64,000 nt of DNA from a virus. Lineage: Duplodnaviria > Heunggongvirae > Uroviricota > Caudoviricetes. Position numbers and translations under genes: made by a program. Positions 38,327 to 39,391 of this stretch are shown here, piece after piece. Location of the stretch: the IMG/VR virus record IMGVR_UViG_3300013307_000673; one strand, 5' to 3'. Every line of letters starts with the position of its first letter. The first letter of the stretch is position 1. The notes beneath the pieces were generated by a model. The model worked only from the letters and a program-made list of their open reading frames with translations. It searched no databases and was not told the origin of the DNA.

Positions 38327-39391
38327 ATGAAACACATAAGAGATATTTCTGTTAGGGCTGTTGCTTCATCGGTATTATTTATTTTTTCATTTTATGCATT
38401 TATTCCTTTTGTATTTTATTTAACCGGAGATATATCAACATCTCTGATATTATTTTCCGCTATTCCTTTTCTGCTATTACCTGCATCACTTTTTATTCGG
38501 CATTACATTACGGTTAATCTGATTAACCCATTATCCTTATTACGTAAAGATATTCATAACCTCAGCAACAAAGACTTCTGTAAGAGCGCATTTTGCTCTC
38601 CTGATCTTGATGTAGTCAGAGAAATGTTAAGCCAATGGGCAACTCAGCAGCAGGAAGCCTCACAGCGTCTTAATGACAGTCTTATCTCACTGGATAAAGG
38701 TAATCTCGCGCTACTCTCCAGAAATGAAACACAGAGCCGCGCTGTTGAGAAAACCGCATATAATGTCAATGAGCTTTATCAGGTCGCCTCACACAACGAA
38801 CAGGAGTCCAATCAGGCCTTTTCATTGGCTTCTATGACACTTGCTGGTGTTCAGGAGGCCATAGAGAATGTTTCACTTATGACAAACTCTACAAGCACTA
38901 TAAAGGACCAGTCTTTGGAGATTAAAAAGATATCAGACTTTATCAGTGAGATGGCCTTTAAAACAAACTTACTTTCATTGAACGCCTCAATTGAAGCCGC
39001 AAGAGCGGGCGATCATGGCAGAGGCTTTTCTGTTGTAGCCAATGAAGTGAGATTGCTGGCTAAAAGTTGTGCTGATTCCGCTCAGGAAATCAAGGCGCTT
39101 GTGAATGATACCTCCTCTCAAATAGAAGATACATTCAAACTGAATAATAAAAACGCGGCTTATATCCATGAAATGCTTACGATGATAGAGAGAACTAATG
39201 TGGCGCTTTCTACGATTAGCACATCATCCAAAGAACAACGCATGAAAATAGAATGTATGAAGAACTCTATTGATAATATTATTATGGCGGTTTACGAAAA
39301 TACAACTTACTCCGAGGAAACTGCTAAGATATTAAACAATATTCGACATGATCTTGATGATATTGAAAAGGAGCATAAAAAGGCCGCATAA
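38327..39391 (+). CDS. Methyl-accepting chemotaxis protein (MCP) signalling-domain protein, 354 aa, with an N-terminal two-helix membrane hairpin and no periplasmic sensor.
   Basis: Near-perfect MCP highly-conserved-domain signature [35 protein letters not shown]. Two adjacent TM helices at residues 10-58. Confidence 0.75.
   Translation: [354 protein letters not shown]

Follow-up and report, generated by a model that had tools for sequence, protein, structure and literature searches.

The 64,000-nt stretch of DNA analysed here (the window) comes from IMG/VR virus record IMGVR_UViG_3300013307_000673. At 38327..39391 on the plus strand it contains an ATG open reading frame (ORF; stop codon included) for a 354-aa sensor-less receptor with the signalling domain of a methyl-accepting chemotaxis protein (MCP). 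What is new here is that a sensor-less receptor of enterobacterial origin persists in a reduced form in a phage-like element, and that it is strongly purifying-selected across a clade of very large elements. The receptor may insert, without being able to adapt, into the CheA/CheW arrays of the host and bias or jam chemotaxis, a proposition that we judge to be evenly balanced.

The signalling domain was identified by Pfam, with MCPsignal (PF00015) matching aa 179-335 at E = 1.2e-33 and 116.9 bits, against a curated cutoff of 34.6. The receptor also matches PHROG 8572 (E = 7e-42), a family of phage proteins with no assigned function. Hydropathy places a first transmembrane helix at approximately aa 11-33 (38357..38425, plus strand), preceded by a conserved ISVR motif that is common to the phage family and to Citrobacter-type receptors, and a second at approximately aa 38-60 (38438..38506, plus strand). 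The outer loop between them is only 3-5 residues long (aa 34-37; GDIS(TS) in the hydropathy reading). An AlphaFold2 model, with a mean predicted local distance difference test score (pLDDT) of 86, has helices at residues 9-32, 36-79, 92-226 and 228-353, with a turn at residue 227. The last two helices, both with pLDDT >90, are predicted to form a long antiparallel coiled-coil hairpin; confidence is low at residues 71-91, including a loop at residues 80-91, and pLDDT falls to 45-58 in the HAMP-like region. Since basic residues lie before the first transmembrane helix and after the second, the positive-inside rule indicates that both termini should be cytoplasmic. No sensor or ligand-binding domain was found in the receptor by Pfam at E≤1. 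A preliminary description of the gene, made from the DNA letters and their translations, had proposed an MCP signalling domain, a two-helix membrane hairpin and the absence of any ligand-binding domain in the periplasm, and in each of these respects it was correct.

The kinase-control module (aa 113-354; 38663..39388, plus strand) forms an antiparallel coiled-coil hairpin and equals that of Escherichia coli Tsr in length. In a phmmer comparison with PDB sequences, receptor residues 117-334 aligned with Tsr 279-496 (8c5v) with zero net indels, at 31% identity and E = 1.7e-26, and the BLASTP alignment with a 581-aa Proteus MCP was ungapped across aa 100-348. A profile of the family, aligned with canonical HAMP-containing MCPs by hhalign, gave 327 ungapped columns at a probability of 100, spanning the second transmembrane helix, HAMP and the kinase-control module. 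The best Foldseek match was 3zx6, a HAMP-Tsr fusion, with a TM-score of 0.85 normalised to the target; 1qu7, 2ch7 and 8c5v were also matched. These length comparisons with Tsr, the Proteus MCP and the family profile, together with the structural match to 3zx6, settle the heptad class, which the preliminary description had left to be assigned: the module is of the 36-heptad (36H) class, the enterobacterial standard, to which 599 of 644 enterobacterial receptors belong (PMC4742279).

The tip of the hairpin, its protein-interaction region, lies at aa 196-262 (38912..39112, plus strand) and corresponds to Tsr 358-424. It contains the MCP tip sequence that had been picked out earlier and is 55% identical to Tsr in ungapped register, compared with 31% over the whole aligned module. 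With an offset of 162 (Tsr = query + 162), the receptor keeps the equivalents of the tip residues F373, N381, E385, R388, F396, E402 and R404 of Tsr, and has Asp in place of E391. The trimer-contact residues and the CheA/CheW-facing residues of the tip show no variation in the close family.

At the positions of Tsr Q297, E304, Q311, E493 and E502 the receptor has T, K, E, E and R, and the residue pairs at the equivalents of the methylation sites are ET, EK, NE, EE and IR. The consensus methylation motif [ASTG][ASTG]xx[EQ][EQ]xx[ASTG][ASTG] fits no stretch of the window protein, nor of its close family members. An NWETF-like C-terminal pentapeptide tether is likewise absent from the window protein, which ends in ...EKEHKKAA, and from close family members; such a tether is not universal among true MCPs. 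The three hinge glycines of Tsr are replaced by A, I and A in the window protein.

Between the anchor and the module lies a degenerate HAMP-like linker (aa 63-112; 38513..38662, plus strand), a remnant that the preliminary description had overlooked. Pfam HAMP gives no match in the window protein at E≤1, and gives sub-threshold matches in the relatives P0002 and P0004 (E = 0.008 and 0.08). A 10-residue deletion between F84 and C85 sets the window protein, along with its near-identical alleles, apart from all relatives; it has removed the segment ...INTPIxxFGNN..., the end of the AS1 helix and the start of the connector. A full-length HAMP is kept in P0002-P0004, and the deletion is specific to the lineage of the window protein.

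Identity to relatives that are ∼40% identical depends strongly on the region, being 75-78% in the tip, 38-48% in the transmembrane hairpin, 30-35% in the methylation helices and 8-10% in HAMP. It follows from this pattern that selection has preserved the membrane anchor and the tip, whilst the relay and adaptation parts have drifted.

The ancestry of the receptor was examined by searching 1.84 billion representative proteins exhaustively with a family profile. The search recovered the short family members P0241-P0243 and P0245 (362-365 aa), and the next short full-length matches starting at residue 1 were bacterial. These include a 388-aa chromosomal receptor of Citrobacter freundii (P0306 cluster, e.g. 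WP_181625845.1), with 62 members in its 90%-identity cluster, and the related, uncharacterised short receptors P0255 and P0249. The Citrobacter receptor has the whole architecture of the phage family, with an ISVRT cytoplasmic N-terminus, a minimal-loop transmembrane hairpin, a HAMP and a module of 36H length, and the two have the motifs ISVRT, YMTxYLVxPI and FGNNCAGxLIP in common. It is 32% identical over its full length to family member P0003 (E = 2e-50), and only 25% identical to the window protein. Because the Citrobacter receptor has this whole architecture, the sensor-less hairpin receptor is not itself new, but is a pre-existing enterobacterial type. We found no described function for receptors of the Citrobacter type. 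Three longer bacterial proteins, P0244, P0246 and P0247 (785-834 aa), also scored highly against the family profile; P0246 and P0247 match it in two stretches, and the P0244 sequence looks as though two complete short receptors, each with its hairpin anchor, had been joined head to tail. Salmonella Tip (STM1657) was considered as a counterpart and set aside: only its unknown function could be confirmed, and the best Salmonella match was a 521-aa receptor, not a short one, that adjoins aer.

Within the element, the gene is a stable component rather than a visitor. An identical receptor protein is found on five independently assembled contigs, including an ENA contig of 458,248 bp (ERZ27252479 k141_5153947) and a Logan contig of 125,568 bp, and the 21-kb (ENA) and 14-kb (Logan) segments around the gene are 99.995% and 100% identical to the window, respectively. 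IMG/VR viral contigs of 259 kb and 342 kb carry the gene with proteins that are 98% and 40% identical. In the window the receptor gene stands at the right edge of a collinear block of at least 12 genes (26223..36712) that is conserved with the relatives L006 and L012, with order and orientation kept at 32-70% aa identity by tblastn. The 40%-identical orthologue closes the same block both in the 342-kb IMG/VR contig and in an NCBI metagenome contig, and synteny ends immediately downstream of the receptor gene. Comparison of the window allele with the IMG/VR allele L011 gave a synonymous divergence (dS) of 0.35 and a non-synonymous divergence (dN) of 0.010, a dN/dS of 0.03. The GC content of the gene, 38.2%, matches that of the window, 37.7%. 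The preliminary description had left room for contaminating bacterial DNA. The independent assemblies, the synteny, the matched GC, the low dN/dS, the presence of the gene on IMG/VR viral contigs and the conserved terminator described below together exclude contamination, chimerism and a decaying passenger; the gene is a strongly purifying-selected part of the element, neither an assembly artefact nor a recent passenger.

The receptor gene is an isolated plus-strand transcription unit, since the genes on either side of it run on the minus strand and its stop codon is followed by a terminator. A Shine-Dalgarno sequence AAGGA (38315..38319, plus strand) was read 7 nt 5′ of the ATG, and relatives of the gene have AGGAGG or GAGGA at the equivalent position. 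Upstream, an AT-rich gap of 336 bp (37991..38326; 25.6% GC) separates the gene from a divergent minus-strand gene of 101 aa, and the nearest upstream plus-strand ORF closes at a terminator at 37534-37557. A sigma-70 consensus scan of the gap found no plus-strand promoter: it gave six promoter-like sites, every one of them on the minus strand, and fewer sites in total than shuffled sequence would lead one to expect. No Rfam family was matched in the gap, and the motif TGTTATT, which five relatives have in common upstream of the receptor gene, has no further occurrence in the window. An intrinsic terminator with the stem GCCTC/GAGGC and a T tract (39393..39424, plus strand; hairpin 39393..39414) is common to the receptor gene and the convergent downstream gene. 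In all five lineage representatives (the window, L011, L012, L006 and L008) a hairpin lies directly 3′ of the stop codon, and the stems vary between lineages by compensatory changes, GCCTC/GAGGC against GCACC/GGTGC. An arrangement of this kind, with the gene alone on the plus strand behind a 336-bp AT-rich divergent region, had been read correctly from the sequence at the outset.

The preliminary description had also placed the gene in a phage-like genome. That the receptor belongs to a phage-like element stands, and we regard a very large phage as very probably the correct reading of it; the genes that would make a virion are, however, missing from the parts covered. Coding sequence makes up 83% of the window, most of it on the minus strand, and nearly all of the genes are ORFans, with only 16 Pfam and 17 PHROG families matched among its 94 ORFs. 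Pfam and PHROG scans of these ORFs gave no hallmark of virion, packaging or replication, and ∼57 kb past the window's right end, as represented on the 259-kb relative (UViG_3300031087_000527), contain ORFans, a transposase-like protein and a phosphoesterase, and no virion gene. One alternative is that the element is a very large plasmid or another extrachromosomal element, or else that the receptor gene is misassembled bacterial DNA or a recent capture in decay; this absence, the related contigs of 802 and 982 kb, one of them labelled Shigella flexneri, and pilin genes of plasmid-borne type speak for it. A plasmid is opposed by the occurrence of the region on three IMG/VR viral contigs and by the 13 scattered tRNA genes. 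Moreover, the two genes adjoining the receptor gene have phage homologues, PHROG 10079 in 53 records and PHROG 5960 in 98, the best of them in the Rak2-like jumbo phages CBB, GAP32, BF and fHe-Yen9-04, where the two genes lie ∼8 kb apart. Megablast matches in 72,556 plasmids and 5,426 E. coli genomes were confined to tRNAs, and 6-kb and 25-kb pieces of the window had no megablast match in 50,697 phage records. A plasmid also accords poorly with the 185,579 species-representative genomes, which contain no member of the close family; the only matches there were to the tip motif, in Nitrincola and in a metagenome-assembled genome of the Bacillota. Against misassembly or decay stand the five independent assemblies with the same gene in the same context, the 40%-identical orthologue at the same end of the 12-gene block, the dN/dS value and the fully ameliorated GC content. 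Overall, we consider a non-phage element, or a misassembled or decaying gene, to be very unlikely.

The host appears to be a member of the Enterobacterales, probably Escherichia or Shigella, judging from sequence affinities. All named homologues of the type IVb pilin encoded in the window are from Enterobacterales, and an 86%-identical pilin is found on the 982-kb contig labelled S. flexneri, which has gene content of a similar kind. One of the contigs in the assembly of an E. coli isolate, 42 kb long, carries family member P0403, and a tRNA called as Met-CAT (44473..44549, minus strand) is 94-99% identical to E. coli tRNA-Ile(CAU). There is a borderline Rfam match to SraL (RF01408) at 32538..32646 (minus strand; 39.3 bits against a gathering score of 39), in which the conserved core GUCGGG...CCUCCC...AGCGGGAUA is present, in a region that is conserved in L006 and L012. 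SraL is an enterobacterial Hfq-binding small RNA. The 36H length class of the receptor agrees with this host group. Proteus, which supplied the best named matches in a word-indexed search, was rejected as the host, because the isolate assemblies, the pilin and the results of the exhaustive search point to the Escherichia/Shigella/Citrobacter group.

The receptor originates in an enterobacterial short-receptor lineage with hairpin, HAMP and 36-heptad module, still represented on Citrobacter chromosomes, of which phage-like elements of ∼260-460 kb associated with Escherichia/Shigella now have a derived copy. If the receptor does act on host arrays, the course of events might be as follows. The protein, made from its own transcription unit, would enter the inner membrane, its two ends being cytoplasmic, and dimerise as a four-helix bundle, whereupon its near-unchanged tip could join the trimers-of-dimers of host receptors and bind CheW and CheA. 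There it would add a fixed, ligand-independent input to the array, biasing CheA activity, and would blunt the cooperative response of neighbouring host receptors, so that the chemotaxis of the infected cell would be locked or jammed, presumably to the benefit of the phage. The receptor is expected neither to sense ligands nor to adapt, because it has no ligand-binding domain, a truncated HAMP, no consensus methylation site and no CheR/CheB tether. The conservation of tip and anchor, together with the decay of the methylation sites, fits such a mechanism. CheA, CheW, CheY, CheR, CheB and PAS proteins are all absent from the 94 window ORFs, and any partner would therefore be encoded by the host or elsewhere in the genome. 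As to the direction of the output, we can offer a low-confidence guess, by analogy with Tsr, that it is kinase-activating, that is tumble-biased, because neutral or basic residues occupy most of the former methylation positions and the HAMP is damaged. Constitutive outputs in E. coli are reported, in work of the Parkinson laboratory, for engineered fragments of Tsr and for receptors that are amidated or defective in HAMP. In its fullest form, the proposal is that ∼450-kb Escherichia/Shigella phages use the receptor as a non-sensing, non-adapting 'array poison' that fixes CheA output and dictates whether the cell swims, tumbles or stays, which we regard as possible though somewhat doubtful.

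Several points weigh against array insertion. The tips of remoter family members differ, with R388H in P0241 and E402Q in P0243, and this weakens the case for canonical CheA/CheW binding by every member. P0002-P0004 keep some EQ pairs along with their full-length HAMP, and may still transduce signals. That the transmembrane hairpin is better conserved than the methylation helices would also be consistent with a membrane partner that gives input. The remainder of the ∼450-kb genome could encode Che proteins or a sensor partner, Shigella is non-motile, and the direction of the kinase bias is a guess from Tsr genetics.

The receptor might instead be a working transducer, taking its input through the hairpin or HAMP-proximal region from a phage or host partner, in the manner of CetA and CetB, or from pH, temperature or proton-motive force, and steering the infected cell to conditions that favour phage production. 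The conservation of the hairpin and of the N-terminal ISVR beyond that of the methylation helices, and the relatives with a full-length HAMP, would be expected of such a protein; R388H and E402Q in remoter members also speak for it and, alongside the intact HAMP of relatives, caution against a single function across the family. In a related version, Aer-like signalling that does not depend on methylation would persist. The chromosomal Citrobacter homologues presumably signal, and there are precedents for signalling with neither a periplasmic sensor nor adaptational methylation in Aer, and with a separate PAS protein in CetA (PMC13232288). In the window protein, however, HAMP, the obligatory relay, has the 10-residue deletion, the lowest regional identity to relatives and low model confidence, and the hinge glycines and adaptation sites have decayed. 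Nor is there an obvious source of input, as no PAS or other sensor protein is encoded among the window ORFs, and the only neighbours conserved across lineages are Band_7, phrog_5960 and phrog_10079, with synteny stopping downstream. We think a working transducer rather unlikely. The remaining reading takes the anchor and tip, the only strongly conserved parts, at face value and gives them a use other than in motility: titration of CheW or CheA, a polar address for some phage process, or a change in flagellar rotation that excludes flagellum-dependent competitor phages. It suits a stand-alone, moron-like gene with its own terminator, in genomes that also carry type IVb pilins and GtrC-like/Glucos_trans_II proteins. 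Yet no extra domain is fused to the receptor that could be delivered to the pole, titration would not require an indel-free, full-length 36-heptad module, and the exclusion of competitor phages is conjecture. A use of this kind seems to us distinctly unlikely.

If the array-poison reading is true, this would be the first described virus to rewire bacterial chemotaxis signalling directly at the level of the receptor. Phage manipulation of host behaviour, as against host metabolism, is largely unexplored. The 36H class and the apparent Escherichia-type hosts mean that the standard E. coli chemotaxis toolkit can be applied. The pattern of natural decay, in which tip and anchor are kept and the methylation sites, hinge and HAMP are lost, amounts to an evolutionary dissection of array incorporation from signalling. 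Should jamming prove true, the receptor would provide a compact genetic tool for switching chemotaxis off, and evidence that very large phages invest in control of the location of the host cell.

The remaining genes of the window and of related contigs are of varied kinds. The pilin is a 186-aa type IVb prepilin (24434..24994, minus strand) with the cleavage motif KGFSLLE and matches to Pfam PilS_N (E = 1.6e-21) and N_methyl; in the 20 kb around its 86%-identical homologue on the 982,256-bp contig there are three further PilS/bundlin-like pilin genes, making four in total. Five tandem paralogues of 349-367 aa (6228..11650, minus strand), with 23-45% mutual identity and no Pfam or PHROG match, adjoin an unannotated 655-aa ORF (4126..6093). 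On the minus strand there are also an M49 (dipeptidyl-peptidase III-like) peptidase (48866..50770), a GmrSD_N/DUF262 protein (21500..22186), a PcfJ-like protein (1743..2921) and a polysaccharide deacetylase (947..1687), and on the plus strand an ankyrin-repeat protein (52241..53233) and a Band_7/SPFH protein (33322..34233), the latter thus on the strand of the receptor gene and, like it, belonging to the conserved syntenic block. The accessory genes further include a 2Fe-2S ferredoxin. Small paralogous genes occur in tandem pairs, at 40950..41378 and 41360..41707 (minus strand), 23339/23773, 56272/56623 and 57969/58364; the first pair lies a short way downstream of the receptor gene, and its products have signal peptides and, in one case, a glycine-zipper match (Rick_17kDa_Anti). 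O-antigen-modifying genes of the GtrC-like/Glucos_trans_II type lie near the receptor gene in L012 (18960..20570, plus strand) and L022 (15392..16996, minus strand), and these are a further sign of investment in host-surface change.

The tRNA genes, 12-13 in number, are scattered among small ORFs at 42192..60897 (minus strand). They include two near-identical copies of tRNA-Arg(TCT), one gene found by Rfam only (59863..59936) and an ARAGORN call with a four-base anticodon (53827..53903). Relatives of the element occur as single contigs of up to 802-982 kb, one of them in the assembly labelled S. flexneri, and these could be concatemers or genuinely larger genomes. The largest, L016, is contig ACARGJ010000001.1 of NCBI GCA_052639295.1 (982,256 bp). 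L015, scaffold_20 of ENA ERZ28587212 (216,600 bp), is collinear with L016 apart from an insertion of IS605 OrfB/TnpB type at 16118-17266, which L016 lacks.

Phage-borne MCP genes have been annotated before, in Escherichia phage A4, in Vibrio phage Yong XC31 and in phages of ammonia oxidisers, and these make up PHROG 8572; a preprint on the ammonia-oxidiser phages lists MCP, CheR and CheY. Our literature search found no functional study of any phage-encoded MCP, in line with the earlier remark that no characterised example was known, and no publication in which the sample or assembly accessions are cited; the words chemotaxis and motility were absent from the jumbo-phage reviews and the large-scale jumbo-phage genome survey that were checked. 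Like the window protein, A4_379 of phage A4 and QAX96201 of Vibrio phage vB_VmeM-Yong XC31 place an MCPsignal domain in jumbo genomes (290-355 kb). They differ from it in architecture, however, A4_379 (470 aa) lacking HAMP and having at its N-terminus a long hydrophobic region of multi-pass type, and the Yong protein (610 aa) being a complete dCache-HAMP-MCPsignal sensor. Because each is only ∼30% identical to the window protein and lies in a different genomic context, the A4 and Yong genes look like independent captures.

Among well-studied receptors, E. coli Tsr and Tar have the same module length as the window protein, the conserved tip residues and a matching fold (1qu7, 3zx6, 8c5v), but only they have the periplasmic four-helix-bundle sensor, the NWETF tether, the hinge glycines and the consensus methylation sites, and HAMP is degenerate in the window protein. 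E. coli Aer and Campylobacter jejuni CetA have a plan in common with it, leading from a hairpin anchor through HAMP to the kinase-control domain with no periplasmic ligand-binding domain, and an Aer chain is among the sequence matches of the receptor (E = 3.3e-21). Aer signals without adaptational methylation, with some Glu/Gln sites retained, and CetA has its sensor on the separate PAS protein CetB (PMC13232288). Aer has an N-terminal PAS domain that binds flavin adenine dinucleotide and CetA has a partner, whereas the window protein has only ∼10 residues before its first transmembrane helix, and no PAS domain is present in it. In the bacterial short receptors, E or Q occupies methylation positions 1-4 in 12 of 12 cases, compared with 11 of 32 in the phage lineage. 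The GG hinge is kept in two of three bacterial short receptors and lost in the phage lineage (a single Gly remains in two members), and the amino-acid composition, ordinary in the former, is AT-shifted in the latter. The Citrobacter type has a full HAMP, the GG hinge and E/Q at each of the four methylation positions. At these positions the window protein has T/K/E/E, and it shows the 10-residue HAMP deletion and no hinge glycine; the FGNN segment is gone, as is most of the HAMP motif, whilst ISVR and the junction proline are kept.

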